Shown here piece by piece: positions 8,812 through 52,242 of a DNA stretch of 64,000 bases. The notes under the pieces are model-generated. The model was not told where the DNA came from. It made no database searches and saw nothing but the letters and a program-made list of their open reading frames with translations. Origin of the DNA: Candidatus Margulisiibacteriota bacterium. Lineage in GTDB: Bacteria > Margulisbacteria > WOR-1 > JAHJIW01. Location: contig JAHJIW010000010.1 of the NCBI GenBank assembly GCA_018823125.1, positions 93,396 to 157,395 of the forward strand, given 5' to 3'. Positions within the stretch are counted from its first letter, which is position 1, and every line of letters begins with the position of its first letter. The translations under genes and the position numbers were made by a program.

Positions 8812-8850
8812 CTCTGTTATTCTTTCGTGCATTCACTTAAAAAATTTCAC
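8812..8850 (-). promoter_or_regulatory. sigma28-like promoter, copy A
   Basis: GTGAAATTT-N13-ACGAAA-N7-AGAG; same spacing as copies B-E, -10 box more degenerate. Confidence 0.6.
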
Positions 8851-8906
8851 TTTTTAAGGGTTTTTTTCTTGCGGCCACACCAAAAATTTGCTAAATTAAC
8901 ACCGCT

Positions 8907-9245
8907 ATGATTGATCATTATTCCTTCGGCCAAATAACCATTGATGGAAAAGCATATACTTCGGATGTCATCATCTATCCGGATCACGTAAACCCAAGCT
9001 GGTGGAGAAAAGAAGGACATAATCTGCAAATTGAAGACTTAACTGAAGTTATCACGGCAAAACCGGATACATTAATTATAGGAACCGGGGCTTCGGGAGT
9101 AATGGATGTCTCAGAAAAGGTAAAACAAGCTATCGCCCAAAAAGGCATAAAATTAATCGTAGAAAAAACCGGAGAAGCCTGTAAAATCTACAACAAGCTA
9201 AAAAGTTCAGGCAAAGTTATTGCGGCGCTACATTTAACCTGCTAA
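8907..9245 (+). CDS. Mth938-like (DUF498/598) protein
   Basis: IDHYSFGQITIDGKAY, WWRKEGH, LIIGTG, AALHLTC C-terminus. Confidence 0.88.
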   Translation: MIDHYSFGQITIDGKAYTSDVIIYPDHVNPSWWRKEGHNLQIEDLTEVITAKPDTLIIGTGASGVMDVSEKVKQAIAQKGIKLIVEKTGEACKIYNKLKSSGKVIAALHLTC

Positions 9246-11027
9246 TTATTGTTCAATCCGGCGCTGCAGCGCATTATATTCTTCTTTAATTTCTTTGGGT
9301 AAATCTTTGCCAAACTTCTTAAAAAACTCGCCTATATTCTCCAGTTCTTTTTTCCATTCTTTTTTATCAACGTGCAGTAGCTGCTGCATAGTTTTTGGAT
9401 CGATATCCAGACCGGTTAAATCTAAGGCATCCGCAGTGGGCACATAGCCAATCGGGGTCTTTTTAGCTTTTCCTTTCCCCTTGCACCGAGCAATAACCCA
9501 CTCTAACACTCTCAAGTTATCACCAAAGCCTGGCCAGATGAAATTGCCGTCTTTATCCTGCTTAAACCAGTTCACGTGGAAAATCTTGGGAGCTTGTTTC
9601 ATTTTTTTACCCATCTTTAACCAGTGTTTAAAATAATCTCCCATGTTATAACCGCAGAAAGGAAGCATCGCCATCGGATCGCGACGGATTTCGCCCTGTT
9701 TACCGTATTGCGCCGCCGTACGCTCAGAAGCCATGGTGGCGCCAACGTAAACCCCGTGCTGCCAGTTTAATGATTCGAAAACTAAAGGTGCTAAGCGGGC
9801 TCTTCTGCCACCAAAAATTATTGCACTAATCGGCACCCCGTGCGGCTGGTTAACTCGATTAGAAACCGTTGGACACTGCTTTAATGGTGCAGTGAAGCGT
9901 GCATTGGGATGAGCTCCATGAACCATTTTTCCTTCTTCGTCCAGCATTCCCGGTCTCCACGCATTACCTTTCCAATCAGTCCCTTCTTCTGGAATATCCC
10001 CGTCCCCACCTTCCCACCAAACGGTTCCGTCCTTTTTTAAAAGAACATTAGTAAAAATTGAATTCTTTTTAACCGAAGCAACTGCATTTGGATTAGTTTT
10101 AGAATTAGTACCAGGCGCCACGCCAAAAAATCCGTTCTCCGGATTAACTGCCCACAGCCTTCCATCCACATCCATTTTCATCCAGGCAATGTCATCCCCT
10201 ACTGTCCAAATCCTATACCCTTTTGCCTTTAGGCCATCCGGCGGAACTAACATGGCCAAATTGGTTTTACCACAGGCACTCGGAAAAGCCGCGGCAATAT
10301 ATTCGATATTTCCGTATGGATCTTCAATTCCCATGATCAGCATGTGTTCGGCCATCCAGTTTTCTTTAGCCGCTAAGTAACTTCCGATACGCAGCGATAA
10401 ACATTTTTTCCCGAGCAACACGTTGCCGCCGTAACCCGAACCAACACTCCAGATAGTATTATCTTCAGGGAAATGCATAATCCAGCGCTTATCAATATCG
10501 AGATCCGCTTTACCGTGCAAACATTTCGTAAACTCGCCGTCTTTTCCTAATACATCCAACACTTCCTGTCCGGCGCGGGTCATAATCAACATATTTAGCA
10601 CAACATAGATACTATCGGTCAACTCAACCCCGATTTTACTGAAAGGCGAACCAACCGGACCCATGGAGAACGGGATCACGTACATGGTGTGGCCTTTCAT
10701 TGAACCTTTAAATATCGCTCGGGCTTTAGCATAAGCATCCTTAGGCAGCATCCAATGGTTGGTAGGCCCCGCATCTCTCTTTTTAGAAGTACAAATTAAT
10801 GTTAGTTTTTCGGTGCGGGCCACATCATTTAAGGCGGTGCGGTGATAAAAACATCCCGGCATTTGTTTCTGATTAAGTTCAATTATTTCGCCGGCTTTAC
10901 AGGCTTCCTTTTCCAGTTGGTGTTTTTGCTTTTCTGATCCGTCGATCCAAACGATTTTGTCAGGCTTACAAAGCTCGGCACATTTTTTTACCCAGGCATT
11001 TAATTTCTTATTTTTTGATTGTGTCAT
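9246..11027 (-). CDS. pckG: GTP-dependent phosphoenolpyruvate carboxykinase
   Basis: GSGYGGN, KKCLSLR, FPSACGKTN, VGDDIAW, NPENGFFGVAPGT, HPNARF. Confidence 0.96.
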   Translation of the reverse strand: MTQSKNKKLNAWVKKCAELCKPDKIVWIDGSEKQKHQLEKEACKAGEIIELNQKQMPGCFYHRTALNDVARTEKLTLICTSKKRDAGPTNHWMLPKDAYAKARAIFKGSMKGHTMYVIPFSMGPVGSPFSKIGVELTDSIYVVLNMLIMTRAGQEVLDVLGKDGEFTKCLHGKADLDIDKRWIMHFPEDNTIWSVGSGYGGNVLLGKKCLSLRIGSYLAAKENWMAEHMLIMGIEDPYGNIEYIAAAFPSACGKTNLAMLVPPDGLKAKGYRIWTVGDDIAWMKMDVDGRLWAVNPENGFFGVAPGTNSKTNPNAVASVKKNSIFTNVLLKKDGTVWWEGGDGDIPEEGTDWKGNAWRPGMLDEEGKMVHGAHPNARFTAPLKQCPTVSNRVNQPHGVPISAIIFGGRRARLAPLVFESLNWQHGVYVGATMASERTAAQYGKQGEIRRDPMAMLPFCGYNMGDYFKHWLKMGKKMKQAPKIFHVNWFKQDKDGNFIWPGFGDNLRVLEWVIARCKGKGKAKKTPIGYVPTADALDLTGLDIDPKTMQQLLHVDKKEWKKELENIGEFFKKFGKDLPKEIKEEYNALQRRIEQ

Positions 11028-11103
11028 AAGTCACCCTTCCCATTTTTTGGTAAACCTTTCCCCTTCCACTGATTGCTAGGGAATTTGCTTTAAAGATATC
11101 ATT

Positions 11104-15581: not shown

Positions 15582-16010
15582 TCAGACTTCATAAGCCCCT
15601 AAAATCGATTCTGCAACCTGGCGCATTGATTTTCTCCTGCTCATACTCTGTTCCTGCAGCTTTCGATAAGCTTCGGTAGGCCGGATATCAAATTGCGCCA
15701 TCAATATCTCCTTGGCTCGCTCAATAATTTTGCGGTCTTCGAGCTGACGCTGAAGCTCTTTTACCTGCTTTTTAAGCTTAGCATTTTCTAGCTCTAGAAC
15801 GCGAAAATTCGCCTTCTTTTGCTTAGCTAAACTATAGCAGGTTGCCCGGGCATGCCCCTCCATTTTGACCATATTATTTTTAATCAAAGGTATCATCAGC
15901 TGATTAAGCCGGGCGCGAGATATACCCAGTCGCTCCACCAGCTGCCGGCTAAAAGTATACGGATACTCTCTTAAAATATTTATTATTTCTTCCTGGCGGG
16001 AGTTTAACAT
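15582..16010 (-). CDS. winged-HTH + coiled-coil + ANTAR domain regulator
   Basis: N-terminal HTH (RQLVERLGISRARLNQL...ARATCYSL); C-terminal RKIIERAKEILM...EAYRKLQEQSMSRRKSMRQVAESIL ANTAR signature. Confidence 0.85.
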   Translation of the reverse strand: MLNSRQEEIINILREYPYTFSRQLVERLGISRARLNQLMIPLIKNNMVKMEGHARATCYSLAKQKKANFRVLELENAKLKKQVKELQRQLEDRKIIERAKEILMAQFDIRPTEAYRKLQEQSMSRRKSMRQVAESILGAYEV

Positions 16011-16016
16011 AGGGGC

Positions 16017-16046
16017 ATTATAACAAAATCGTCAAGGAATCGTCAA
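16017..16046 (-). promoter_or_regulatory. leaderless sigma70 promoter containing a TTGACGATT direct repeat
   Basis: TTGACG-N18-TATAAT with TGn extension, 6 nt to ATG; TTGACGATT at 16038-16046 and 16027-16035. Confidence 0.65.
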
Positions 16047-16112
16047 TGGAGCACTAGCCTAACTAATCCGGGCCAATTTGATCAGTTTGGAATATATCTT
16101 TAAGCAGGAAAT

Positions 16113-16922
16113 TTAGCCCCGTTTGTGTCTTGTAACATCCCTTACCGTAGCAATAAAAGCCTTGGGTCGCCCAAAAGAATCCTTGATTAAGGCGGCATTC
16201 AATTCCCCGAGAAAGCGTGACCCGTCTTTTCTAAGCAGCGTATAGGTTAAGTTACGCACCAACCCCTCCTCTAAGGTTCTTTCCAGATTTTTTTTAGCTC
16301 TGGCATGGTCCTCTGGAGCAATAAGATCAAAAGCACTTCTACCAATCAGCTCATCAGCACTGCTATAACCATGTAATTTATAGGTTTGCGCAGAAACCTC
16401 AATCACGTGTCCCTCCAGATCAGTAACCGTAATCGCTTCCGGAGAGGTTTTAAGCATGGAGCGATATAATTCTTCAGATTCGGATAACACTTTTTCCGCC
16501 TGCTTGCGCTCTGTAATGTCCATTAACGATAAAAAATAACCAATGATATTTCCTTGTTCGTCTTTGCGGGCTAAAGTAGAAATACTAAAATCAATTATAT
16601 TCCCGCTTTTGGTAACCAGGGTAGATTCCCGGTTTTTCACAAAGCCTTTTTTAAGGGTTTCTTTTTGTACTTCTTCAATCACCCGGGTTTCCGGAAAACA
16701 TTCCGCCAGACTTTGACCAATAATAACGTCGGGGGAATAGCCGAGCAGTTCGGGCAGAGTTTCGTCTACATCTAAAATTACCCCCAGCGGATTAACGTAA
16801 GCCATCGGAATCGGCAGGAATTTCCACATGTCACGAATGTAGCTTTCCAGATCGTAAACATCCTGCTCATATTTTGGGGGCCGATGACGATTATTAAATC
16901 CAGGAAACTTTATATTCATCAT
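16113..16922 (-). CDS. tandem PAS-PAC protein without an output domain
   Basis: Two PAS/PAC repeats (LGYSPDVIIGQSL...LMDITERKQAE; LHGYSSADELIGRS...VRDVTRHK); start uncertain because it overlaps the upstream gene. Confidence 0.75.
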   Translation of the reverse strand: MMNIKFPGFNNRHRPPKYEQDVYDLESYIRDMWKFLPIPMAYVNPLGVILDVDETLPELLGYSPDVIIGQSLAECFPETRVIEEVQKETLKKGFVKNRESTLVTKSGNIIDFSISTLARKDEQGNIIGYFLSLMDITERKQAEKVLSESEELYRSMLKTSPEAITVTDLEGHVIEVSAQTYKLHGYSSADELIGRSAFDLIAPEDHARAKKNLERTLEEGLVRNLTYTLLRKDGSRFLGELNAALIKDSFGRPKAFIATVRDVTRHKRG

Positions 16923-17490
16923 ACGGATCTCCTCGATAAGAACATTTAATTTGCTGACTGCTTACTTCCTTATCCGGAAGTGCAAATTGAATAATGCGGG
17001 AAAAATAACCTTCGATATATTTACAAAAAACCGGCAAAAACTTAATGCCCTCCAACCGGATGTTAACATACTTTTTCTCTTCACTATAATCTGCAATCAC
17101 GAGCTCACCGGCAGAATAGTGTTTGGGCCAATAGAGAGGCGCGGACTTGACAGTCTGCTCTAAGCTGATGAAATAACGCATTAGAATTTTTACCATAAAA
17201 GAAAACTTGGGCGCCATATTGCCCATCGCCTTCACTGCGGCATCATCCCAATTAAAAGTATCCTTAATCACCATTAAGGAAAGACCTCGCAACCCCATCG
17301 GATACCACCCCATAGCCTTAACCTTTTCAAATTCGATCGGATATCCGAGCTGCTTTAAGTTTTCTTCTACTTTTTTTAAGCCTTCTTCCCCATACTTAAT
17401 TTTAAGGTAGGTCGCATCCGTCTGGAAAACTACCCCGCGGACCTCACCCTTCATTTTCATTATATCGTCGGCTTCTTTTTTGGTAAGCAT
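16894..17490 (-). CDS. hypothetical protein, V4R / DUF2378-like
   Basis: GEVRGVVF, WYPMG, YWPKHYSAGEL, YIEGYF, KCSYRGDPYDEYKVSW resembles V4R-type ligand-binding folds; GAGG RBS before ATG 17490. Confidence 0.55.
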   Translation of the reverse strand: MLTKKEADDIMKMKGEVRGVVFQTDATYLKIKYGEEGLKKVEENLKQLGYPIEFEKVKAMGWYPMGLRGLSLMVIKDTFNWDDAAVKAMGNMAPKFSFMVKILMRYFISLEQTVKSAPLYWPKHYSAGELVIADYSEEKKYVNIRLEGIKFLPVFCKYIEGYFSRIIQFALPDKEVSSQQIKCSYRGDPYDEYKVSWI

Positions 17491-17568
17491 AGCAGACACC
17501 TCTATAGCAGCAAAATTATCACATATAACAATTATGTCAAGGATAAAAGCGAGAAAAACCTATTAAAT

Positions 17569-19142
<1,574 letters not shown>

Positions 19143-19154
19143 AAACTTTCCTCC

Positions 19155-20144
19155 TTAGCGTTTGATAAGCTCGTTAAATTTCTTTAGGCGGTTATACTCC
19201 ACCAGCGTCACTAAAGCTTTACTTTCGGTTTTAATGCCACATTCTTCGCAGGCCGCCACCGGATTAAGACCTCCCGGAACTACCAGCCCAACTTTTTCTA
19301 TCCCAACCGGCATACCTAAAACCGGCTCTTCTTCCTTACCTATATATAAGGCCCCGCCAAAACCAGCGGCTTCCGCTTTTTCTAACACTGACTCGACATC
19401 CTGCTTGGATACCGCTGGAATCTCGCGCAGTCCGGCTAATATTTTCCCCGAACCCTTAACGGCATCTCTGACACTGGTCATTTTACTTCTGATAAAAATT
19501 TCATGGGGATCCAAGGTTGACCCCGAATATCTAATTAAATCCGTAAAACGCAACGGTTTTCCCTTTTCGATCTGTAAAATTCCACCAAACTTAGAGTCCA
19601 GCGGAATCGAATGTTTTAATAATATGCCATTCAAGTTAATCGTGCATAAGGAGCCAAAACAAATTTTTCCCTGCGGAACAACCATGTCCCCTACTTCTTC
19701 GCCGGCTTCCGCCACCAATACCCGGTCGCCCATCCCCAATTTTTTCTTAAAAACATCCCGCATGATTTTCAAAGCGCCTTTAAAATCATTTTTATTAAAT
19801 AAAGAAATATTTAATATTACTTTCCCACTTTTTGTATTGAGATCGAAATCCATTAAATAAGCTTTGGATTCAATGCGCGAGCTAACCAAACCTACTTTTT
19901 CTGATACCCAAGCATTAGCTAGTTCTTCTTTTCCCATTTTAGTGATGGTTCTCCCTTCTTTCCAGGTTGACTCAGTTAGCTTTTGTTCATCCATAATTTT
20001 TAAGTGATAGCGCACCGCACGCTCCGTTAAATCGATCCCAAATTCCTTTAGTCGATCAGAAATATCCTTAGACCCCACCGGCTCACTCGACTCAGCGATA
20101 ATTCTTAAAATTGCGCTGGTTTTTCTTTCCATGTCTGCTGTCAT
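19155..20144 (-). CDS. nrpR: NrpR family nitrogen repressor (wHTH + one NrpR/DUF128 domain)
   Basis: ERAVRYHLKIMDE HTH, GRTITKMGKEEL, CTINLNGILLKHSIP, GGLNPVAA; start placed at ATG 20144 after AAGGAG. Confidence 0.88.
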   Translation of the reverse strand: MTADMERKTSAILRIIAESSEPVGSKDISDRLKEFGIDLTERAVRYHLKIMDEQKLTESTWKEGRTITKMGKEELANAWVSEKVGLVSSRIESKAYLMDFDLNTKSGKVILNISLFNKNDFKGALKIMRDVFKKKLGMGDRVLVAEAGEEVGDMVVPQGKICFGSLCTINLNGILLKHSIPLDSKFGGILQIEKGKPLRFTDLIRYSGSTLDPHEIFIRSKMTSVRDAVKGSGKILAGLREIPAVSKQDVESVLEKAEAAGFGGALYIGKEEEPVLGMPVGIEKVGLVVPGGLNPVAACEECGIKTESKALVTLVEYNRLKKFNELIKR

Positions 20145-20153
20145 AAATTCTCC

Positions 20154-20210
20154 TTGACTTACGGCAATCACTTACCGTATAATCATAACTAAGTTTACTG
20201 CAATTGTAAA
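20154..20210. promoter_or_regulatory. overlapping divergent nrpR/gdhA promoters with a TACGG-N10-CCGTA inverted repeat
   Basis: Plus strand TTGACT(20154)-N18-TATAAT(20178); minus strand TTTACA(20210)-N17-TATGAT(20187); inverted repeat at 20160-20179. Confidence 0.65.
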
Positions 20211-20266
20211 GAAATTATTTTTTTCGAGAGGAGGATGCCGTAAAGATCATAAGTTCCAAGTGATAA

Positions 20267-21610
<1,344 letters not shown>

Positions 21611-21631
21611 AAAGTTAACAGGCGCAAAACC

Positions 21632-21671
21632 AAAGAAAAAAGCCTTCGAGAAATCGAAGGCTTTTTCTTTT
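21632..21671. terminator. bidirectional intrinsic terminator after gdhA
   Basis: A-tract, AGCCTTCGA-GAAA-TCGAAGGCT, T-tract, between convergent genes. Confidence 0.9.
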
Positions 21672-21691
21672 ACTCTTGATCCGCGATTTTT

Positions 21692-22120
21692 TTATGAACT
21701 TATCCAAACCACATAGGCTGAATAGAAAAGATAAATGCTAACCAGGATAAGAATAATAGAATATAATTTATAGGCCCCAACTACAAACTCATCCATCTGA
21801 AGCACTGATTTGCCTGCGCTTTTTGACAGCCAATCCAAAAAATTCGGGAAAAATAAATAAAGCAAACCGAAAAACAATAAAACCAGCCAGAAAGGATGCA
21901 GCAAGCCCAGTTCAGAAGACCTGAAAGCCAATAGCGCTATCCAACCCGCCAGAGCAATAAATATAATACCCACAACATATTTATAGGGTTTCAGCAATTC
22001 ATCAAGAGAAAAAATCACCTTATTCCAAAACGCGCAAACTTGCGTTAAATACCTAGGGGCAAACAAAAGCGTTACACCAAAAACCAAAATAAAGATCCCG
22101 GCTGCTAACAAAAAAATCAT
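21692..22120 (-). CDS. hypothetical membrane protein with two similar halves
   Basis: Hydrophobic; FAPRYL...SLDELL and FFPNFL...QMDEFV repeats; AAAGGAGG RBS. Confidence 0.7.
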   Translation of the reverse strand: MIFLLAAGIFILVFGVTLLFAPRYLTQVCAFWNKVIFSLDELLKPYKYVVGIIFIALAGWIALLAFRSSELGLLHPFWLVLLFFGLLYLFFPNFLDWLSKSAGKSVLQMDEFVVGAYKLYSIILILVSIYLFYSAYVVWISS

Positions 22121-22213
22121 CGCCTATTCCTCCTTTATATTATTTAGGATTCTTAGCAAATTATGCCCCCTTTATTTTAATTGTCAAGGCTAAAAAATCA
22201 TCTTCGGATATTT

Positions 22214-23557: not shown

Positions 23558-23587
23558 GGGTCGACCTCCGTTATTTAAGATTATCCG

Positions 23588-27687: not shown

Positions 27688-27726
27688 AGGACACCTCCTT
27701 GAATATGCCTGTTGACTTTCTTTTCC

Positions 27727-34155: not shown

Positions 34156-34193
34156 ATGAAATTTATCAATTAATTATCCGATAACTAAATAGA
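34156..34193 (+). promoter_or_regulatory. sigma28-like promoter, copy B
   Basis: ATGAAATTT-N13-CCGATA-N7-AGA. Confidence 0.7.
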
Positions 34194-34201: not shown

Positions 34202-35155
34202 ATGATTTTTATGCCAAAAATATCAAAATTAAATCGTAATCGAATTGATCTGCATGTTCATTCCACCCACTCGGACGGCAGACTATCGCCGCAAAACATA
34301 TTAAGGCAATGCTCTCAAGAAAGAGTAAATATGGTTGCGCTTGCCGATCACGATCGTCTAACTCCAGATTTACGTGCAGTCGCCCGTTCCTTAGGCATAA
34401 GATTGGTAATTAGCACTGAACTTGGATGCTATAGGAATGATCCTACAAAAATGGAGCACCCTTTACATATATTGGGGTATGGGATAGCTCCTTCTTCAAA
34501 CAAAATATTAAATAAATTAGCGGCCCTCGATGAATCCAGAAGAAATGATTGTTCCAGATTCAGGCAAGCACTGGAAGCTGAAGGGCTGGAAGTCAGAGAA
34601 GAAGATGTATTAAGAGAAGCCAAGGGACAAATCCCGCGGCGCTTCCATTACTCCGGCGCAACCGCAAAAAATCCAAATAATTTTGAACTATTAAGCCGAT
34701 TGTCCCCTGACCCAAAACTTAAATATGCCACTTTACGTCAAATAATGTCCGATTGTGTTTCTCGAACATCCGTATTAAGTCCCGCCGAAGCAACAAATTT
34801 AATCAAAAGCTCCGGCGGTTTTCCGGTTTTAGCACATCCCTGCCATAAATCCGATGGCTGGCCTACTCCAGATTCCCCCGGCTTAGCTGAATTTATCGAA
34901 GAACATTTACCCTTGGGCTTAATCGGGATGGAATGCTACTCTTCCCATCACCAAAGCCACATGATACCGCAACTCATTAAAATTGCTACGGATTTGAACT
35001 TAGCAATAACCGGAGGGACAGATTTTCACGGAAGAGAAGGAGAAAGATTGGGAGCGATAAAATTTAAAGATGTCTCCACTTTTATTGATTTAACCGATGA
35101 TATGCTCAATCCAAGAGGATGTCAGATAATATATTCCGCATCGGATTTAGGATAA
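34202..35155 (+). CDS. PHP-domain metallophosphoesterase (YciV/TrpH-like)
   Basis: DLHVHSTHSDG, DHD, HILGYG, VLAHP, TGGTDFHG. Confidence 0.85.
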   Translation: MIFMPKISKLNRNRIDLHVHSTHSDGRLSPQNILRQCSQERVNMVALADHDRLTPDLRAVARSLGIRLVISTELGCYRNDPTKMEHPLHILGYGIAPSSNKILNKLAALDESRRNDCSRFRQALEAEGLEVREEDVLREAKGQIPRRFHYSGATAKNPNNFELLSRLSPDPKLKYATLRQIMSDCVSRTSVLSPAEATNLIKSSGGFPVLAHPCHKSDGWPTPDSPGLAEFIEEHLPLGLIGMECYSSHHQSHMIPQLIKIATDLNLAITGGTDFHGREGERLGAIKFKDVSTFIDLTDDMLNPRGCQIIYSASDLG

Positions 35156-35157
35156 TT

Positions 35158-35967
35158 ATGCAAGCTCAAATTAACAAAGTTAATAGTTTTAAATTAAATG
35201 TTTTCCCGCGAAAGCTGAGAACCCTAAACCAAACGGTTCAGGTAGAAAAAAGAAGAAACATTCTTTATCTGTTAGCTGACCACGCCGGGAGACCCGGTCC
35301 CGGCCCCAAAGCATACTTGGGCAGCATATGTACAAGAACTGGAAATATTATTTCAACGTTCGGCCGCAGCTCTGCAGTTGACGTTTTATTAGATCACCAC
35401 GGGAAATTACATTTTAAACATGGAGATGATTATTTTGGCCAGCTTGAAGTAGAAGTTATCTTGCCAGAAGAAACCACTTTAACGATGGATGCCATAACCT
35501 ATCAACATCGACCACCCTTAATCAAAAAAATGCACATCGGAAACCCGGAGCAAAAAACACTAACCCTTTCGGTATCCAGCCTCACCCTCTGGAGAGAGGT
35601 TACAACAGAAAATATCCCGGATACACAATTAGGAGACTTCAGTTTAGTTGAACAGCCTTTTCTTTTTGCTTTTGGCTTTGATGGAAAAGTTACCGTTGGC
35701 CAGGGAATTCTTCCACAAAATATAGCGGCGGCATTAGGTAAGCTGCAACAAGAGGTTCCACGTTTTGTTCACCTTACTCAAGAACCAGACCTCGGCGAAA
35801 ATTTCTTATGTCAACACGTCAATTTACCCCGAAGCCAAGTTTCATATTCGATATTGACAAGAGAAGTTCATTTATCCGGATTAAACATTGGCATCCGAGG
35901 CAATATGGACCTTGCCAGTTTTGGCCTACACTGGAATTTGGTTTTCAACTGGGGAGTAAAAGAATAA
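35158..35967 (+). CDS. hypothetical protein
   Basis: Long ORF; ATG at 35158 follows the PHP stop codon; no recognisable motif. Confidence 0.6.
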   Translation: MQAQINKVNSFKLNVFPRKLRTLNQTVQVEKRRNILYLLADHAGRPGPGPKAYLGSICTRTGNIISTFGRSSAVDVLLDHHGKLHFKHGDDYFGQLEVEVILPEETTLTMDAITYQHRPPLIKKMHIGNPEQKTLTLSVSSLTLWREVTTENIPDTQLGDFSLVEQPFLFAFGFDGKVTVGQGILPQNIAAALGKLQQEVPRFVHLTQEPDLGENFLCQHVNLPRSQVSYSILTREVHLSGLNIGIRGNMDLASFGLHWNLVFNWGVKE

Positions 35968-36004: not shown

Positions 36005-36043
36005 GTGAAATTTTTGCACGTGTATTCCGATAAATAAGCAGAG
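36005..36043 (+). promoter_or_regulatory. sigma28-like promoter, copy C
   Basis: GTGAAATTT-N13-CCGATA-N7-AGAG. Confidence 0.75.
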
Positions 36044-36069
36044 ACTTAAAGTCCAAGGTTAGGTTCGAG

Positions 36070-36105
36070 AAGCCGCCAATTTTTTTCTGGCGGTTTTTTA
36101 TTTTT
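36070..36105 (+). terminator. intrinsic terminator in the saccharopine dehydrogenase leader
   Basis: AAGCCGCCA-N9-TGGCGGTTT, continuing as TTTATTTTT, immediately before the AAAGGGG RBS. Confidence 0.75.
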
Positions 36106-36120
36106 AAAGGGGTGGTCCAT

Positions 36121-37452
36121 ATGCCAAAAGTATTAATTATGGGAGCCGGAATGGTTTCGAATCCGCTGGTAAGACACGTCTCAAGACTAAAGGGGTACCG
36201 CGTCACCGTTGCAGACCAAAACTTAAGCGCCGCACAAAGAGTGATTGGAAACCAAAGAAACTGCCGTTCAATCGCCTTAAACGCCACTGATATCGCAGCA
36301 GTAACAAGAGAAGCTAATCAGGCCGATATTGTGGTAAGCATATTGCCTCCGGAATTTCACGTTGGAGTAGCAAAAGCCTGTTTAGATGCCAATTCACATT
36401 TAGTAACCACTTCATATATCTCTCCCGACATGGAAGCCCTGCACGAACAATTTTTACAAAGAGGTCTTCTTTCTTTAAACGGGATGGGACTTGATCCGGG
36501 AATAGACATTCTTTCTGCCATGCAAATAATCCATAGAACCCAGGCCTCAGGCGGAAAGATCACCGGATTTTTCTCCGCCTGCGGCGGACTTCCTGCACCC
36601 GAAGCAAATAATAATCCCTTCGGATATAAATTTGCGTGGACGCCTTCCGGAGTTTTTAAAGCCATGACCAACGGCGCAGTTTATTTAAGAGACGGGAAAC
36701 AAGAATCGATTCCCGCTGATCAACTTTTTGCTAATCCCACGCAACATGTATTTGAAGAAATTGGCACACTCGAAGCCTACCCTAACCGCGACTCGGTTAG
36801 TTTTATTGAAAGCTTTGACCTTCAGGGGGTCAGCAACATGCTGCGCGCTACTTTTAGGTATCCAGGCTGGTGCAGATTCTGGCATAAAGCAGCCCACACC
36901 GGAATATTAAGTTTGGATCCTATCGCGAGCCCTAATTCATTGAGATTCGTGGATTTAACCAGCAGAATCATTGGCGTAAAATCATCGGCCTCTGTACGCG
37001 AAGCGTTTGCCGCAACCATTGGCGAAGAAAAAGATTCTGAAATAGTTGAAATGGCCAAATGGCTGGGACTTTTTTCAACTGACGCTATCCCGACTAGATT
37101 GGATTCACCCTTTGCGGTTATCGTTCATCTGGCCGCCAAAAGAATGAAATATGCTAAAGGTGAAAGAGACATGTCTGCCATGCAGCACGTATTTGATATT
37201 GAAACACGAGACGGAACCCGACAAAGACAAACCTCAATTCTGGTGGATTATGGTATTCCAAACGGCGATTCCTCAATGGCAAGAACAGTTGGATTAACCG
37301 CCGCCATAGGTGCAAAACTAATTGCGGAAGGAAAAATTACTGCCCGGGGAGTTATTTTACCCACTCTTCCAGAAATTTATAATCCAGCAATCGAACAACT
37401 GGAAGATATGGGAATCAAAATGGAACACCGCTTTGAAACCTTAGACGGTTAA
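36121..37452 (+). CDS. saccharopine dehydrogenase (glutamate-forming; Lys9 / AASS-SDH-like)
   Basis: KVLIMGAG, VTTSY, GLDPGID, CGGLPAPE..NNPFGYKFAW, EAYPNRDS, RATFRY, SSMARTVG. Confidence 0.88.
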   Translation: MPKVLIMGAGMVSNPLVRHVSRLKGYRVTVADQNLSAAQRVIGNQRNCRSIALNATDIAAVTREANQADIVVSILPPEFHVGVAKACLDANSHLVTTSYISPDMEALHEQFLQRGLLSLNGMGLDPGIDILSAMQIIHRTQASGGKITGFFSACGGLPAPEANNNPFGYKFAWTPSGVFKAMTNGAVYLRDGKQESIPADQLFANPTQHVFEEIGTLEAYPNRDSVSFIESFDLQGVSNMLRATFRYPGWCRFWHKAAHTGILSLDPIASPNSLRFVDLTSRIIGVKSSASVREAFAATIGEEKDSEIVEMAKWLGLFSTDAIPTRLDSPFAVIVHLAAKRMKYAKGERDMSAMQHVFDIETRDGTRQRQTSILVDYGIPNGDSSMARTVGLTAAIGAKLIAEGKITARGVILPTLPEIYNPAIEQLEDMGIKMEHRFETLDG

Positions 37453-38208
37453 TTATGATGCCGTCGGCCTTTGATTTTCCAGCTCGAATACGGGCGAGGT
37501 AAAAATTGTCATAAAGGCAGAGTCGCCTAAATAAAAATTATTTTCTGGATGGGTCCGGCTGCCGGTCAAACAAATATCCTGCGGATGAAACCAGCTCACA
37601 AACACAAACTTAATGCCCTGCCCCATCAAAGTTTGGATCGTACGCCAAAGTTCAGCCTGCTCATTCAAAAAAGAATCATTAAAATAAAATACCTTTACCT
37701 TAGCCCATCGCAGCTTTAAAAAGGGAAGCTCAATATCTTCTTCGATGTCCCGGATTACTGGGAATAGCCACTGACATTCATCAATAATTATAACTCTCGA
37801 CTTTTTGCCAGCCGCCAAAGTTTCCGCTTTCGTTTTTCTAAAGCACTCTCTTACTACCTGCGAGCTAACTTTCTCCCTGATAAATTCATATACTAGGAGC
37901 CTCTCCCCCATTTTTAAATAAGCGGCTTTTCCTAAATGTTCCACGAGTACCGGTTGAAGCACATTTTGCGCCCAGTATGTTTTACCGATCTTAGTATTAT
38001 TTCTAAAACAGTAATGGCGGTTTCTAACGCTGTCATGATAATGCCGGCCGCTAACATAGATCGATTCATATTTTTTTAGTCGGTCCACCGCCACCTGCGC
38101 GGCTTCACGGGCGGCTCCACGTCTAACTCTGTACACAAAACCGGGAACCAACTGATAATGGCCTTTCTGAATATGAGGACAGACTGGTGCCTTAATTGAA
38201 GTTCTCAT
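37453..38208 (-). CDS. hypothetical protein with degenerate P-loop NTPase motifs
   Basis: NNTKIGKT (Walker-A-like) and VIIIDE (Walker-B-like); ATG at 38208 overlaps the end of the amidohydrolase. Confidence 0.55.
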   Translation of the reverse strand: MRTSIKAPVCPHIQKGHYQLVPGFVYRVRRGAAREAAQVAVDRLKKYESIYVSGRHYHDSVRNRHYCFRNNTKIGKTYWAQNVLQPVLVEHLGKAAYLKMGERLLVYEFIREKVSSQVVRECFRKTKAETLAAGKKSRVIIIDECQWLFPVIRDIEEDIELPFLKLRWAKVKVFYFNDSFLNEQAELWRTIQTLMGQGIKFVFVSWFHPQDICLTGSRTHPENNFYLGDSAFMTIFTSPVFELENQRPTAS

Positions 38209-39784
38209 AAACCACTCCGCCATCAAAAATAGTTAAAAGCGGACGGGTCGATAGTAAATCCGGCGCCGGAATTTTAAAAAAGTCAGGACGCAATACAACC
38301 AAATCCGCAATATATCCGGGCTTTACCGCACCTTCAACTTTTTCGCGGCAGGCAGCATAGGCATTTCCATAAATATATGCCCCAAGCGCCTGCTTTAAAG
38401 TTAAACGCTGGTTAGGATACCAGCCGCCGCGCGGAGTTCCGTCTAACCGCGTCCGCTGGGTCGCAGCAAATAAGCCTTTCATGGGATTGGGGGTTTCAAT
38501 AGGAGCATCTGAACTAAAGGCCAGGGTAACTCTCGCTTCGTACATTTCTCTCATGCGATAAGCGCGGCGCGCTCTTCTTCCCAAAAACTCATTCGCAGTT
38601 GATATATCATCCGGAAGTTGTGACGGCTGCATCGATGCAATAATCCCTAACCAGGCAATACGCCTTAACTCATGGGTTCTTAAAAGTTGCACGTGTTCAA
38701 TCCTTGACCGCAAATTTGGATCAATCGATCGCGAAGCTTCAATGGCATCAATAGCATTTTTATTAGCACGCTCGCCAATGGCATGAATTGCTGCAGGAAA
38801 ACCATGTCTTGCGGACTCAACCACTTCTTCAATTAATTGATCGCGGGGAATCACTTCTTCTCCGCAGGAAAACGTGCCATTGTAAGGTTTAAACGTTAAT
38901 GCGGTTTGCGCTCCCAGCGTACCGTCAGAAATAAATTTTGTTCCCAATACCGAAAATCTATCGTCTTCTTCCACGCGCGCCGCTAAAGCCAGCTCCAGAT
39001 CTCTAAATAAAAATCCCATCCGGATCCTGAAATTTAACTGCCCGTTATCTCTCAAAGACTGATAAGCCGCATATTCTTCTCTTCCGGAAACGTCGCCAAA
39101 ACCAACCCCAAAGGTATGGGTAGAAGTTATGCCTAGCGAAAACATTTGCGGTATGCCAATGCTTAACGCAGCCTTTATGGCCTCCTGATCCGGTTTGGGT
39201 ATATGTGGCTTTACCAGATCGCAAGCTGTCTCCAAAAACACGCCGGTAGGATTACCAGCTGCATCCCTTATAATTTTTCCGCCTTCCGGATCCGCTGTGT
39301 TACGGGTAATTCCAGCTCTCTCCAATACTTCCGAATTAACCCAAAGCAAATGCGAACAATAACTAGTCAAAGCCGTTGGGATTTTTCCGGTTATCGCATC
39401 CAACTCCTGCCGGATCGGGAATCTTCCGCCAAATCTATCTTTATGCCAACCACCGCCCCGGATCCACTGCCCCACATCTAACCCTTCTGTTCTGCCTCTC
39501 ACTGCTTCCAGCATTTTTTCCGGAGTTTTAGCTTCTCTCAAGTCAAGTTGAGTCAGCCTTAATGAGTAATCAACAAAATGAGTATGGCCATCTACAAAAG
39601 CCGGCATGAGGACGGCGCCTTTCAGGTCAACATCGCTCCCCAAACAAGGTGGTGCTTTTCTTTGGGCGGGTCGCACTTCGATAATTCTTCCGTGCTGGCA
39701 TACTACATCACTAAGTCCCCGGTCAAGCCGCGGGGTTTTTGGATGGAAAACGCGGGCATTTCTCAAAACTAATCTACCTGGCAT
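38192..39784 (-). CDS. amidohydrolase family 3 (YtcJ-like) protein
   Basis: PAFVDGHTH, KFISDG, HAIGERA, RIEHVQ, FSSDAP, GYIADLVVL. Confidence 0.88.
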   Translation of the reverse strand: MPGRLVLRNARVFHPKTPRLDRGLSDVVCQHGRIIEVRPAQRKAPPCLGSDVDLKGAVLMPAFVDGHTHFVDYSLRLTQLDLREAKTPEKMLEAVRGRTEGLDVGQWIRGGGWHKDRFGGRFPIRQELDAITGKIPTALTSYCSHLLWVNSEVLERAGITRNTADPEGGKIIRDAAGNPTGVFLETACDLVKPHIPKPDQEAIKAALSIGIPQMFSLGITSTHTFGVGFGDVSGREEYAAYQSLRDNGQLNFRIRMGFLFRDLELALAARVEEDDRFSVLGTKFISDGTLGAQTALTFKPYNGTFSCGEEVIPRDQLIEEVVESARHGFPAAIHAIGERANKNAIDAIEASRSIDPNLRSRIEHVQLLRTHELRRIAWLGIIASMQPSQLPDDISTANEFLGRRARRAYRMREMYEARVTLAFSSDAPIETPNPMKGLFAATQRTRLDGTPRGGWYPNQRLTLKQALGAYIYGNAYAACREKVEGAVKPGYIADLVVLRPDFFKIPAPDLLSTRPLLTIFDGGVVYENFN

Positions 39785-39796
39785 AAAAATTCCCTC

Positions 39797-39833
39797 AAAA
39801 CAGCAAAGCCGATCCTAAAAATTTAGGATCGGC
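39797..39833 (-). terminator. intrinsic terminator between LKR and the amidohydrolase
   Basis: GCCGATCCTAAA / TTTAGGATCGGC stem followed by TTTGCTGTTTT, directly before the GAGGG RBS. Confidence 0.75.
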
Positions 39834-39849
39834 CTGCTAAAATAATAAA

Positions 39850-41283
39850 CTATATATTCACATCGTGTTTATCTTTTAATTCTGCACCGTGTTCAATTAG
39901 TGCGTCCAGCATTAATTGATTATCCGCATACCTTGGAGTAAATTCTCCTCTCCAAACAATAACCGCATTTCTTATCTGCGGCGGAAGTGAATTTCTTCCT
40001 ACAGCAAACGGTTGATTATATTCTGCGCTAGCAATACCTGAAACAAACGGCAAAAGCATACGGCTAAATTCCGCCGCCGAAACTGCCGGCAATTCACAAG
40101 GCATGGTTTCTACTGCGTTAACCGGAATCCCAGTACCGTTCACTCCATAAGTAATTCTACCGGTGCTAGGATTATATACATAAAATGGATTTTCAGGTTT
40201 AGTCCCCGCTAGCGTTCCATGCATCGGACCTTGGCCAGTAGTTGCATTAAATACGTCGCATCCTACATCGCCAATGGCTACCAAACGATTATCCGAGGTA
40301 CTTAACGCCGATGCCATAAGATCTCTCGAGACCAAAGCTGGCTGTCCAGGTTTCCAAAGCGCATTATTCATAAGCAACGTAAAGAGATGCAGATAGCGAC
40401 CCATAGTAGATTCATAAGCCTCGGGATCAGCATCTAAATCTGTTTTTGAACCCGGTCTTCCATCAATCCTCTGGTATCTTCCATTTGGTCCGATTCGGTC
40501 AAACAAAACGCTGTAAACTTCATTTCTCGAAAGCGATTGCAGGGTTGCCGGATCCAGGAGATCGCTGGGCGAAAGGCTTTTTGCTCCGAGAGCATTATAT
40601 ATTTCAAGCGAACCTTGTCCGCAGCGTCCACCACCCGTAAATCCAACAATCATGGGCGGCATACCATCTGGAAGTCCATTCTTTTTAATATCCTTTCCGA
40701 TTTTTCCTAGCTGCGCCTTGATCTGATCAATTGCATCCTCGCCAGAATAATCAAAAGCCTGCCTGACGGATAAAAATGGATTTTCAATTCCCATCACATC
40801 CAATCTTCTACCTAACAGATGTAAAGAATCAGTCATACCTACAATTCCCGCAAACCGGCCAAAAGCAACTAACCTCTCCCCCCTATCATTTGTAATATAT
40901 TCATAATCAACATAAGTTGCTCGGGCATCTACAATATTTTGCAGCATATTCATATTTTCCGGCTGTCCCTTAGTAACATGCCCAAAAAATACATAGACTC
41001 CATTTTCCTTAAAAACATCCGCCGGAATTTGTTTTACCCCAAACATCAATGGTTTCTCCGGACTTAGCTCGGTAACAATGCGGGCACCGGCATCCCGGTA
41101 CGCTTGCGCTGGATAAATCCTGAGTGGAGACCTTTGAACTGTAACTTCTAATGCATGCTGGCCGGTTAATTCCGCAACCGCAGACGGATTTAAAGTTACC
41201 CTTCTTTCATAACGATGCATCACTTCACGCGGGATCTGGACGGTTCTGGCTCTTTTTTGAACTGGTCGTGCTACGCTTGTCAT
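39850..41283 (-). CDS. lysine-ketoglutarate reductase / Lys1-type saccharopine dehydrogenase (AlaDh/PNT fold)
   Basis: YERRV, GVKQ, FFGHVTKGQ, DYEYI...RLVAFGRFAG, GDVGCD, VETMPCELP match the LKR domain of AASS; ATG at 41283 after AAAGGGGG. Confidence 0.85.
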   Translation of the reverse strand: MTSVARPVQKRARTVQIPREVMHRYERRVTLNPSAVAELTGQHALEVTVQRSPLRIYPAQAYRDAGARIVTELSPEKPLMFGVKQIPADVFKENGVYVFFGHVTKGQPENMNMLQNIVDARATYVDYEYITNDRGERLVAFGRFAGIVGMTDSLHLLGRRLDVMGIENPFLSVRQAFDYSGEDAIDQIKAQLGKIGKDIKKNGLPDGMPPMIVGFTGGGRCGQGSLEIYNALGAKSLSPSDLLDPATLQSLSRNEVYSVLFDRIGPNGRYQRIDGRPGSKTDLDADPEAYESTMGRYLHLFTLLMNNALWKPGQPALVSRDLMASALSTSDNRLVAIGDVGCDVFNATTGQGPMHGTLAGTKPENPFYVYNPSTGRITYGVNGTGIPVNAVETMPCELPAVSAAEFSRMLLPFVSGIASAEYNQPFAVGRNSLPPQIRNAVIVWRGEFTPRYADNQLMLDALIEHGAELKDKHDVNI

Positions 41284-41334
41284 ATTAATTCCCCCTTTCA
41301 TTATTATAAGTATATGTTTTGCCAAGATTCCGAT

Positions 41335-43311
41335 TTAGAATGTATCCTTTTTTGCACCTCCTTCAAACTTATCTTTTGTTAATCCCATATTTAATTTTGG
41401 CTTCATGGTCGGAAACAAGATAATATCTCGAATAGAAGCCGAGTTGGTTACCACCATAGCTAACCGGTCAATTCCAATTCCCAATCCACCCGTAGGTGGC
41501 ATCCCAATTTCTAAAGCCTGCACAAAGTTTTCATCAAAAGGATGCGCTTCCTCGTCTCCTTGCCCAGCTCTCACCACCTGTTCTTCAAAACGCAATCTTT
41601 GATCGATCGGATTATTTAATTCCGAAAAGGCATTGGCAATTTCCATTCCGCCAGCCACAAAAGCTTCAAAGCGTTCTACATATTCCGGATCCTCCGGACA
41701 GCGTTTGGCTAAAGGGGTGGTAACCGTTGGATACCGGGTCACAAAAGTGGGTTGAACCAGCTGGCTTTCGGCTAATTCTTCAAAAAGCGTGGCAATGATC
41801 CATCCACGCTGCATGTTATCTTCAAGTTCAATTCCTCTTTCTTCGGCAATGGCTCTTAAACTGTCAACACTGGCTCCCATTACCGATACCCCACCCATCT
41901 GTTCAATTGCAGCCTCCATGGTCACCCTTCTCCAGGGCGGAGCAAAATTTAGCAGCGTTCCTTGATAATCAATTTGATGTTTGCCGCAAACTTCCCTGAC
42001 AATGTGCGCCACCATAGTTTCGGTAATCCACATCATTTGCTCATAGTCAGTATAAGCCCAGTATAATTCCATGGAAGTAAACTCAGGATTATGTTTCTTA
42101 TCAATCCCTTCGTTTCTAAAAATTCTTCCAATTTCAAAAACCCTTTCGTAACCACCGGCAATCAAGCGCTTTAGATCAAGTTCGGTCGCAATGCGCAGGG
42201 TCAAATCCATACCCAAAGCATGTGATGTAGTGACAAAGGGTCGCGCAGCGGCTCCGCCGTGCATTTCCTGCAATATCGGCGTTTCAACCTCCATAAATTC
42301 ATGTCCCCATAAAAACTGGCGCATTTCGCGCACTACCTGACTGCGGGCTCTAAATCTTGCTCTAACCGAAGCATTCGAAGCCAAATGCATATAGCGTTGA
42401 CGCTGCTGAAGCTCGGGATCATCCAGTCCCATATGGGTTCCTTCTTCACTGGTTTTTCCCGGCAGAGGACGAATGGCTGATGCCAGAAGCGTATAATCTT
42501 CTATCCTTAAAGTTAATTCACCGGTCCGGGTATGAAACATGCGCCCTTGCAGCCCTAAAAAGTCACCCGTGATTATTTGTTTTCTAAATAAACCATATGC
42601 TTCTTCCCCAACTTCGTCGCTTTGCATAAAAATCTGAACACGGCCGGACTCATCTTCAATGTGTCCGAAAGAAATTCTTCCCTGTTCTCTTTTTAATACT
42701 AATCGGCCGGCAATCCTGACCTCGGTTGGCAAGGCTCCTCCCTCGCCGATTGCTTCGCACTGACTTCTTAAATCACCAATATGATGGGTCCGGTCATATT
42801 TTGTAGCGCCATAAGGATTAATCCCCTGCTCCAACAAATTTTGCACCCGGGTATACCCTTGAATTACAGTTGGGTTCCAGGTTGCAGGATATGGAGACAA
42901 AATAATGTCTGAAACTCTTAACACAACTTCGCCGCGATGATCATGACTGACATCCCCAATAAAACCAAAATTATCTCCGTTTCCCATAGAAATCCTTAAT
43001 GCATCAATGCTTTGCTGAGGGATAGATCCCTTAGCAAACATAATTTGAATTTCGCCACTTTCATCCGTAACTTTTCCTTGTGATGCTTTATGGATTTTTC
43101 CTTTAATGACTAAATTCCCGATAATTTGAATACCCTGCGGCAGGTTAGCTCCTTGCGGCAGCGCTTCGCACCGGGTTCTCAATTCTGCGACGCTGTGGGT
43201 ACGATTAAAAGTGTTGGTAGAATGGGGCTTAAAACCTCCTCGTATAACAGAATGCAGATTCCCGTATCCCCTAATCCTTGGAGCAGTTGCCTTTGAAGTT
43301 GTAGATACCAT
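41335..43311 (-). CDS. second class II lysyl-tRNA synthetase with a duplicated N-terminal OB fold
   Basis: Motif 1 EVETPIL, motif 2 FRNEGIDKKHNPEF, EIANAFSELN, motif 3 GLGIGIDR; two RTH...DESG.(I/V)QI blocks; ATG at 43311 after AAGGAG. Confidence 0.9.
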   Translation of the reverse strand: MVSTTSKATAPRIRGYGNLHSVIRGGFKPHSTNTFNRTHSVAELRTRCEALPQGANLPQGIQIIGNLVIKGKIHKASQGKVTDESGEIQIMFAKGSIPQQSIDALRISMGNGDNFGFIGDVSHDHRGEVVLRVSDIILSPYPATWNPTVIQGYTRVQNLLEQGINPYGATKYDRTHHIGDLRSQCEAIGEGGALPTEVRIAGRLVLKREQGRISFGHIEDESGRVQIFMQSDEVGEEAYGLFRKQIITGDFLGLQGRMFHTRTGELTLRIEDYTLLASAIRPLPGKTSEEGTHMGLDDPELQQRQRYMHLASNASVRARFRARSQVVREMRQFLWGHEFMEVETPILQEMHGGAAARPFVTTSHALGMDLTLRIATELDLKRLIAGGYERVFEIGRIFRNEGIDKKHNPEFTSMELYWAYTDYEQMMWITETMVAHIVREVCGKHQIDYQGTLLNFAPPWRRVTMEAAIEQMGGVSVMGASVDSLRAIAEERGIELEDNMQRGWIIATLFEELAESQLVQPTFVTRYPTVTTPLAKRCPEDPEYVERFEAFVAGGMEIANAFSELNNPIDQRLRFEEQVVRAGQGDEEAHPFDENFVQALEIGMPPTGGLGIGIDRLAMVVTNSASIRDIILFPTMKPKLNMGLTKDKFEGGAKKDTF

Positions 43312-43333
43312 TTTGTACTCCTTTCTTTTTTTC

Positions 43334-43370
43334 AAAATAAAAAAGCCGTTCCGATTTGTCGGGACGGCTT
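43334..43370 (-). terminator. intrinsic terminator in the LysRS2 leader
   Basis: AAGCCGT-c-CCGA-CAAA-TCGG-a-ACGGCTT followed by TTTTATTTT. Confidence 0.75.
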
Positions 43371-43402
43371 CTTGAACCTTTTATCAAAGATTGGACTTTT
43401 GT

Positions 43403-43441
43403 CTCTAGTAGTATATCGGGAGGTAGTTAAATAAATTTCAC
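43403..43441 (-). promoter_or_regulatory. sigma28-like promoter, copy D
   Basis: GTGAAATTT-N13-CCGATA-N7-AGAG. Confidence 0.75.
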
Positions 43442-49901: not shown

Positions 49902-49903
49902 GA

Positions 49904-51418: not shown

Positions 51419-51424
51419 GATGCT

Positions 51425-52135
51425 TTATCCTTTTTCTGCAGCAATCATCTGCAAACCTTTTAGAGTTAATAATTCGTCAATTATATCAAAATTCACTGCT
51501 TTTGATAGCATTCGAGCATATCCTCCGGTAGCCACTACCTTGGCCGGTCCCAACTCATGCTTAAAACGCTTAATTAACTCATTCACTAATCCGATATAAC
51601 CGATGTAAATACCAGCCTTCATGGCTTCGACGGTATCTTTGCCAATAGCCTTATCGGTGTCACTAATCATAATTTTGGGTAATTTTGCAGTTTTATCGTG
51701 CAGGGCATCTCTGGAAATTTCAATTCCCGGAGCAATGGCCCCACCCTGATAAGTCCCATCCTCGGATACCGCACAAAACGTGGTAGCCGTACCAAAATCA
51801 ACTACAATTGCCGGAGCACCATAAAGTTTTTGGGCGGCATACGCATTCACTAACCGGTCGATCCCGATTTCTTTTTTGTTAGTCAGGGCAATTTTCATCT
51901 TAATATCATTATGCTGCACAAAATGCGGCTCGATTTTTAATTTTTCAACTGCCAGATGTTCGATCTCATCTTCGCGGGACGGAACCACGGAAGCAACAAT
52001 AATCTTATCGATCTTTGCCCATTCGGTAACCGGAAGCTTGGAAGGACTCGGCGCCCGCCCGGATCGAACCAGATTCTTCCCGTCAAAAACCCCAAAAGTG
52101 ATCGACGTATTTCCGATATCTAATGCCAATAACAT
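51425..52135 (-). CDS. coaX: type III pantothenate kinase
   Basis: MLLALDIGNT, GIDRL, VDFGTATT, GGAIAPG, ATGG; start at ATG 52135, 7 nt after TATAAT. Confidence 0.93.
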   Translation of the reverse strand: MLLALDIGNTSITFGVFDGKNLVRSGRAPSPSKLPVTEWAKIDKIIVASVVPSREDEIEHLAVEKLKIEPHFVQHNDIKMKIALTNKKEIGIDRLVNAYAAQKLYGAPAIVVDFGTATTFCAVSEDGTYQGGAIAPGIEISRDALHDKTAKLPKIMISDTDKAIGKDTVEAMKAGIYIGYIGLVNELIKRFKHELGPAKVVATGGYARMLSKAVNFDIIDELLTLKGLQMIAAEKG

Positions 52136-52203
52136 GGGTAACATTATAGCTTGGAATGGGCTGGGAGGAAAGCAGGGTTTGGCTAAAATAATTGGCCTAA
52201 AAA

Positions 52204-52242
52204 GTGGAATTTTTAGAGTGAAAGTACGATAATAATGTAGAG
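52204..52242 (+). promoter_or_regulatory. sigma28-like promoter, copy E
   Basis: GTGGAATTT-N13-ACGATA-N7-AGAG. Confidence 0.65.

Follow-up and report, generated by a model that had tools for sequence, protein, structure and literature searches.

Which form of RNA polymerase reads a promoter-like element that occurs five times, always with the same spacing, in one genome fragment of an uncultured bacterium, and what do the genes behind it have in common? We addressed these questions in a stretch of 64,000 nucleotides (hereafter the window) from a Candidatus Margulisiibacteriota bacterium (GenBank assembly GCA_018823125.1, contig JAHJIW010000010.1, positions 93,396 to 157,395 of the forward strand). 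The FtsZ protein encoded in the window is 81-84% identical to proteins of Candidatus Margulisiibacteriota, Candidatus Saganbacteria and candidate division WOR-1. Saganbacteria/WOR-1, which are known from metagenomes alone, form a sister lineage of Cyanobacteria; we know of no account of transcription control in this lineage and of no developmental programme in the phylum. An initial annotation had interpreted the element as a promoter of the sigma-28 (FliA/SigD/WhiG) type in front of otherwise unrelated, non-flagellar genes, an interpretation that is partly supported by the analyses described here.

Five copies of a two-box element at fixed spacing

The pattern RTGRAATTT-N13-MCGAWA-N7-AGA, which was derived post hoc from sites already known, matched exactly five times in the window and never in 100 dinucleotide-preserving shuffles, confirming the five-copy, identically spaced element of the initial annotation. 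Relaxing the pattern to TGRAATTT-N14-CGAWA with one mismatch allowed gave a single extra match, located in a coding region, and no additional site was found in the 14 kb beyond the window. Because the nonamer GTGAAATTT alone was not enriched in the window (41 observed versus 43.6 expected), whereas the full pattern gave five matches against none, the signal consists of two boxes at a fixed spacing. Indeed, every copy contains GAAATTTN-N11-NCCGATAA without length variation, the central CGA is present at all five sites, and CCGATA(A/T) at three of them.

The placement of the five sites is not random. Two lie on the minus strand, site 1 (GTGAAATTT-N13-ACGAAA-N7-AGA; 8813..8850) upstream of hyp327 and site 4 (GTGAAATTT-N13-CCGATA-N7-AGA; 43404..43441) upstream of LysRS2, a lysyl-tRNA synthetase paralogue. 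On the plus strand, site 2 (ATGAAATTT-N13-CCGATA-N7-AGA; 34156..34193) precedes the gene of a PHP-domain protein, site 3 (GTGAAATTT-N13-CCGATA-N7-AGA; 36005..36042) that of a saccharopine reductase, and site 5 (GTGGAATTT-N13-ACGATA-N7-AGA; 52204..52241) that of a 61-aa membrane protein. The sites located initially were the right ones, with end positions trivially off by one base in three cases. All five are intergenic in a window of which about 5% is intergenic DNA, and all five point toward a start codon, which follows the AGA at a distance of 9 nt (PHP), 13 nt (61-aa protein), 58 nt (hyp327), 70 nt (saccharopine reductase) or about 102 nt (LysRS2). An A-rich tract lies 5' of four of the five sites, as had been noted before. 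Spacers and flanks differ without relation among the sites, which are thus not copies of a repeat element.

The element also differs from promoters of the housekeeping type. Other intergenic regions of the window carry clear TTGACA-N17/18-TATAAT promoters, often TGn-extended, for example upstream of the ANTAR gene, hyp201, hyp142, pck and DUF498, in agreement with the TTGACA/TATAAT type read in the initial annotation. As a -10 box of sigma-70/sigma-A, the downstream box of the element would have G at -12 throughout, with T(-7) at one of the five sites. A generic sigma-70/terminator scan did not discriminate (49 matches versus 42 expected). We consider it very probable that the five sites represent a genuine class of alternative-sigma promoters.

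Target genes and conservation of the element in the lineage

The targets had been described as otherwise unrelated, which did not hold for three of the five transcription units. Site 2 precedes an operon (34202..35967, plus strand) of the PHP-domain protein gene (34202-35155) and the overlapping hyp282 (35119-35967). The target of site 3 (36112..37452, plus strand) is a saccharopine reductase, or saccharopine dehydrogenase (SDH), of the L-glutamate-forming type, which matches the saccharopine reductase 1e5l at 3e-83 and the SDH half of AASS at 1.5e-71. LysRS2 behind site 4 (41335..43302, minus strand) is a paralogous lysyl-tRNA synthetase of class II whose N-terminal OB-fold region is duplicated; its true start is the ATG at 43302, preceded by the Shine-Dalgarno sequence AAAGGAG. 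Downstream of it (37453..41325, minus strand) follow a gene resembling lysine-ketoglutarate reductase (LKR; 39850-41325), an amidohydrolase-like gene (38192-39784) and hyp257 (37453-38226), with a hairpin at 39835-39806 that may be a partial operon end. Along its entire length, the LKR-like gene aligns with the lysine-ketoglutarate reductase half of human AASS (1.4e-44), so that sites 3 and 4 would drive both halves of the saccharopine pathway together with the LysRS paralogue.

This link was corroborated at the orthologous loci of LysRS2 (L083, L084-L088 and L210-L212). In one relative (L088; LysRS2 58% identical), genes for PHP, SDH, LysRS2 and LKR form a single head-to-tail cluster on one strand, and the PHP protein encoded there is a full-length homologue of that in the window (26% identity, 4e-11). 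The LKR-like gene directly follows LysRS2 in eight of nine orthologous loci (the contig of L083 ends too soon to be read). PHP-hyp282, SDH and LysRS2 with LKR are therefore one conserved module, contiguous in L088 and split into three units in the window. In the Saganbacteria metagenome-assembled genome (MAG) GCA_016223245.1, the LysRS2-LKR pair clusters with kamA, kdd and kamDE, genes of lysine fermentation. A scan of genome contigs with the saccharopine reductase returned only relatives of 38-45% identity in unrelated bacterial and archaeal MAGs and no orthologous context. As a side observation, a tRNA synthetase paralogue with a duplicated OB-fold region here travels with genes of lysine catabolism; common control of a LysRS paralogue and lysine catabolism (through the saccharopine pathway or through lysine fermentation) is a testable lead on the role of the duplicated synthetase. 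The two remaining targets are hyp327 (7772..8755, minus strand), an ORFan without a Pfam match for which a homologue search returned only hyp327 itself, and the 61-aa membrane protein (52254..52439, plus strand).

The initial annotation had pointed to orthologues as a place to look for conservation of the element, and indeed a -35-like box was found upstream of the LysRS2 operon, or of its first gene, in all eight lineages compared, at protein identities of 54-65%. The central CGA is present in five of them, where the -10 box reads CCGATAT, CCGATAA, TCGAAAG, CCGACAA or GCGATAT; the other three have GGA or TGA instead (GGATAG, TGATAA and TGAAA). The pair of boxes is GTGAAATTT-N13-CCCGATAT in the window, GTGAAATTT-N13-TCCGATAA in L084 (Saganbacteria GCA_016223245.1), GTGAAATTA-N13-GTCGAAAG in L211, CTGAAATTA-N13-CCCGACAA in L210, CTGAAATTC-N13-TGCGATAT in L212, GTGAAATTT-N13-GTGGATAG in L083 and CTGAAATTT-N13-GCTGATAA in L086, while L088 has two copies of GTGAAATTT-N13-(T/C)ATGAAA and a third copy elsewhere.

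A scan of metagenomes (JGI and others) with TGAAATTT-N13-CCGATA-N7-AGA retrieved at least 118 stretches; 111 unique matches were listed, and the following figures refer to these. Fifty-seven were intergenic-like, with no long open reading frame over them, and usually lay 10-50 nt before a start codon preceded by a ribosome-binding site. Comparison with the 54 matches in coding regions revealed conservation at positions left free by the pattern in the intergenic set only. Intergenic matches showed an A-tract at -3 to -1, a T after TGAAATTT, an A-run in the spacer, and A or T at about 90% at the two positions after CCGATA; G preceded CCGATA in 45% of intergenic versus 24% of coding matches, and T preceded AGA in 61% versus 29%. 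The resulting intergenic consensus is AAAnTGAAATTTT...tGCCGATAWW..ATAGA(G). The matched contigs carry 14 further relaxed copies, compared to 0.07 in composition-preserving shuffles and none in unrelated loci of comparable GC content totalling 1.29 Mb. Several of them encode relatives of window proteins, including FtsZ (75% identity), a DHOD-B-like subunit (65%) and, at 46-50%, DNA-alkylation repair, LarA-like, ANTAR, PII and CxxC proteins. Moreover, four homologous families of downstream proteins (28-55% identity, one pair 91%) each retain the promoter. The promoter class characterises Saganbacteria/WOR-1 (Margulisiibacteriota) as a lineage.

Regarding the proteins encoded behind the promoter in relatives, several enzymes (a double ClpP, an isochorismatase-NAPRTase, RpiB, PtsI-like and UDPGP-like proteins, and a pentapeptide protein) have N-terminal extensions of 50-160 residues. 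These extensions (L096, L112, L126, L178, L191, L199 and others) abound in basic residues and match no Pfam family. Of the other targets in relatives, most lack any known domain.

Candidate factors reading the element

The closest fit among known promoters was found with the sigma-28 family. The E. coli sigma-28 consensus is TAAAGTTT-n11-GCCGATAA (PMC2859248), and WhiG-type promoters read T(A/C)AA-N16-GCCGATAA, in which the central CGA is most conserved (PMC12871210). The class described here reads (t)GAAATTTn-N11-(g)CCGATAw. Like promoters of FliA (E. coli/Salmonella) and SigD (Bacillus subtilis), it combines xAAAxTTT with (G)CCGATA(A/T) at 11 nt between the 8-mers (PMC2859248), which corresponds to TAAA-N15-GCCGATAA, and the distance from AAA to CGA is 20 nt as in the sigma-28 consensus. 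The -10 core is CGA in both, and the unforced positions of the listed intergenic metagenome matches give tGCCGATAWW, in line with the sigma-28 -10 box GCCGATAA. The predicted start lies 7-8 nt downstream in both, and AGA(G) at +7/+8 is in keeping with initiation 6-9 nt past the -10 box. Of the FliA/SigD/WhiG geometry assigned initially, spacing and CGA thus stood up, while the -35 box departs from it, as discussed below.

The pattern is also compatible with canonical FliA promoters, since it retrieved a site linked to fliA. A probe sequence of FliA matched only one locus (L131) in 2.1 Mb of loci, while a flagellin probe gave no match in them. At this locus (3303-6138, minus strand), on an unrelated high-GC contig, a strict motif match found blindly by the metagenome scan lies 76 nt upstream of a gene for a 71-aa protein with two transmembrane segments, followed by fliA (TIGR02479, 262 bits). 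The site adjoins flhA and a fragment of flhF, the 71-aa protein occupies the position of FlgV, and the site is probably a canonical sigma-28 autoregulatory promoter. Some 'Margulisbacteria' have flagellins and FlgV, and FlgV is co-conserved with sigma-28 (PMC7018530, PMC11607428). A search of literature and supplements on flagella, motility or sigma factors in Saganbacteria yielded nothing usable.

Targets outside the flagellar system are known for such factors. As far as is known, WhiG in Streptomyces and sigma-28 in Chlamydia control small regulons that belong to an established developmental switch. Both regulons pair a sigma-28-type consensus with non-flagellar genes, as does the class described here (PMC12871210, PMC12282069), so that flagellar targets are not obligatory for the sigma-28 family. 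Unlike these regulons, the class serves a lysine-catabolic module and many lineage-specific proteins of unknown function.

Several observations weigh against a sigma-28-family factor. In the -35 box, AAA and then TTT are present at all sites as in TAAA(GTTT), but the first T is replaced by G, and a TG before AAA is invariant; the class has TGAAATTT where FliA and SigD promoters have TAAAGTTT. At the aer promoter of E. coli, replacing the first T of the -35 box by C reduces activity roughly tenfold (PMC2859248). The 69 downstream proteins sampled in relatives include no flagellar, chemotaxis or FlgM Pfam family, and neither fliA nor flgM was found among the targets, which bears out the non-flagellar character proposed initially and sets the class apart from FliA and SigD regulons. 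The window and the adjoining 14 kb contain no sigma factor gene. The density of five sites in 78 kb (window plus 14 kb) is high for a sigma-28 regulon and much higher than for FliA or SigD, and, unlike theirs, many class sites are directly followed by a hairpin and a U-run. The central CGA is lost upstream of LysRS2 in three of the eight lineages while the -35 box is kept, a pattern that also suits a DNA-binding activator. As a separate point, the predicted start of sites 2 and 5, and of many sites from the metagenomes, lies in an AGAGG that doubles as a ribosome-binding site in a leader of just 9-17 nt; owing to this overlap of AGA(G) with the Shine-Dalgarno sequence in short leaders, AGA may not be conserved solely as a +1 signal.

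The strongest competitor is an extracytoplasmic function (ECF, group 4) sigma factor of the sigma-W/X/M kind, with a -35 box TGAAA(C) and a -10 box CG(T/A) 16 nt apart, in which case the regulon would be of the envelope or stress type. Sigma-W of B. subtilis has the consensus TGAAAC-N16-CGTA, and TGAAAT-N16-CGATA of the class has the same geometry, with the same TGAAA start and identical spacing to a CG-initiated -10 box as in Bacillus sigma-W/X promoters. The invariant TG before AAA suits an ECF -35 box better than TAAA does, and the targets include membrane, secreted and unknown proteins. In contrast to ECF promoters, the class has AAT and not AAC (the C is a T in all window sites and never a C in the eight orthologous lineages), and its -10 box is GCCGATAW, that is CGA followed by TAA or TAT and often preceded by an extending GC, rather than CGTA or CGTC. 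ECF sigmas usually regulate their own genes, but none of the sampled sites is followed by a sigma/anti-sigma operon. We therefore regard an ECF sigma as unlikely, though as a serious contender. A box conserved in all eight LysRS2 lineages, with the downstream CGA in just five, could instead be an activator site: GTGAAATTT would then overlie the -35 region, with GATAAN as a poor -10 box of the housekeeping sigma, and GTGAAA-N18-GATAAN indeed distantly matches TTGACA-N18-TATAAT. Against an activator together with sigma-A speaks that the downstream box always has G in place of the T(-12) required by sigma-A, and that T(-7) is missing from most copies; the listed intergenic metagenome matches conserve tGCCGATAWW and not a sigma-70 -10 box. 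The upstream box itself has neither dyad nor direct-repeat symmetry and sits at -35 with rigid spacing in all copies, before dozens of unrelated genes. This makes an activator improbable, and we judge it highly probable that the boxes are read by a sigma factor.

That the matches arose by chance, or are remnants of a duplicated or mobile cassette without shared function, could be argued from the post hoc definition of the pattern and from the leader sequence that sites 3 and 4 have in common. The absence of matches in shuffles, the intergenic and gene-oriented placement of all sites, their unrelated spacers and flanks, the conservation of the box at 54-65% protein identity and its recurrence across the lineage effectively refute this explanation, to which we assign a negligible probability. 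Sigma-H/ComX-type factors, SigI, the sporulation sigmas and cyanobacterial SigF were compared as well, by their consensus sequences, and were rejected because boxes or spacing did not fit.

Among sigma factors, a sigma-28-family factor is the reader that we modestly favour. In such a factor, region 4 would contact the -35 box (A-tract)-TGAAATTT and region 2/3 the -10 box (G)CCGATA(A/T) with its CGA core. Judged from the boxes, transcription would start 7-8 nt after the -10 box, at the A or G of TAGA(G), placing the putative start site at the AGA. The alternative sigma would drive five transcription units in the window, namely the three units of the lysine/saccharopine module, the ORFan and the 61-aa membrane protein. 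Taken as a whole, one alternative sigma, best fitted by the sigma-28 family, reading five promoters of a lineage-wide class is the best explanation of the data, and we hold it with moderate confidence.

Hairpin leaders and further features of the window

Behind sites 1, 3 and 4, a hairpin with a U-run lies 5' of the ribosome-binding site (z-scores from -2.8 to -5.0 by folding). These hairpins were read by folding, the generic terminator scan having missed them owing to its loop-length limit. The leader of site 1 (8766..8812, minus strand) contains the hairpin AACCGAUAUGCC..GAUCGGUU and a U-run followed by the Shine-Dalgarno sequence AGGAGG (-13.7 kcal/mol, z -5.0). In the leader of site 3 (36043..36104, plus strand), a GAC..GUC hairpin and the conserved block GGTTCGAGAAGCC precede a terminator-like hairpin with a U-run (-18.6 kcal/mol), and in that of site 4 (43330..43403, minus strand), two small hairpins and the conserved block GGTTCAAGAAGCC do so (-23.8 kcal/mol, z -4.4). 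At these three sites, sigma-dependent initiation would probably be combined with regulated termination at the hairpin and U-run.

The leaders of SDH and LysRS2 share an invariant block, GGTTCNAGAAGCC, directly 5' of the terminator hairpin and overlapping it, which is also present in the leaders at L083, L086 and L211 (window 36062-36104, plus strand, and 43330-43380, minus strand; L083 3785-3832; L086 98-146; L211 3940-3988); the leader at L084 is comparable. The GGTTC part of the block is unpaired in every predicted fold. When five leaders were analysed with RNAalifold, the terminator stem alone was supported and an upstream aptamer was not. The genes upstream of the leaders vary from locus to locus, so the leaders belong with the genes that follow them. 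Rfam returned nothing in the window at the gathering threshold, and only sub-threshold noise for the leaders. Based on these features, the SDH and LysRS2 leaders probably act as attenuators, with a protein or a ligand as the candidate controlling agent.

Two further observations concern hairpins. The letters of the class -10 box, CCGATATG, recur inside three leader hairpins (window 8776-8803, minus strand; L084 187-219; L086 112-138), which could reflect coincidence, shared ancestry or a sigma-dependent pause signal. At three other loci (L090 2672-2750, plus strand; L139 7755-7680, minus strand; L163 2885-2960, plus strand), a conserved long hairpin of some 75 nt (AGACUGGA...UCCAGUC) begins at the +1 of the same promoter type; its inner stem shows compensatory changes, it ends in a U-run, and in L163 an MFS transporter gene follows it. 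An Rfam search of these three loci returned tRNAs only, and the hairpin may be a small RNA or a riboswitch-like leader.

A wider reading, which we offer tentatively and consider possible rather than probable, is that a sigma-28-family factor or a relative with TGAAATTT/GCCGATAW specificity serves as a high-density global regulator in possibly flagella-less Saganbacteria/WOR-1, in a two-key control together with the hairpins. If so, there would be about one promoter per 13-16 kb, reaching about one fifth of the transcription units of the window, and the two keys would be initiation by the alternative sigma and conditional read-through of hairpins right after +1. The regulon would amount to a cell-state programme in which lineage-specific proteins of unknown function are joined by enzymes that are paralogous or N-terminally extended (LysRS2, ClpP, RpiB, PtsI and others). 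If the sigma is a FliA/WhiG homologue, this would be the third independent non-flagellar reuse after Streptomyces and Chlamydia, apparently with by far the largest regulon. A sharply defined, conserved promoter also provides a computational handle on the regulon, through scans of MAGs, lists of members and the cell state that these describe.

Besides the targets, the window encodes proC-sepF-ftsZ-ftsQ-ddl, GTP-PEPCK, carAB, two LysRS, coaX, rluD, lgt, lspA, ahcY and ileS, as well as a nitrogen block of ANTAR, PII, amt, NrpR, gdh and glnA. In this block (15582-23605), an archaeal-type NrpR repressor stands beside amt, PII, glnA, gdh, an ANTAR antiterminator and PAS proteins, a combination of regulators that is unusual in a bacterium. 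At the right end of the window (60001-64000; L207 10001-14237), GC content falls to 33% and the contig stops about 4 kb further on; this end carries four tandem paralogues of about 345 aa, three of them with a HisKA_7TM domain and no kinase core. Lastly, a gap of 431 nt listed as intergenic (27688-28118) resembles, on its minus strand, an uncalled small open reading frame upstream of the FIST gene.

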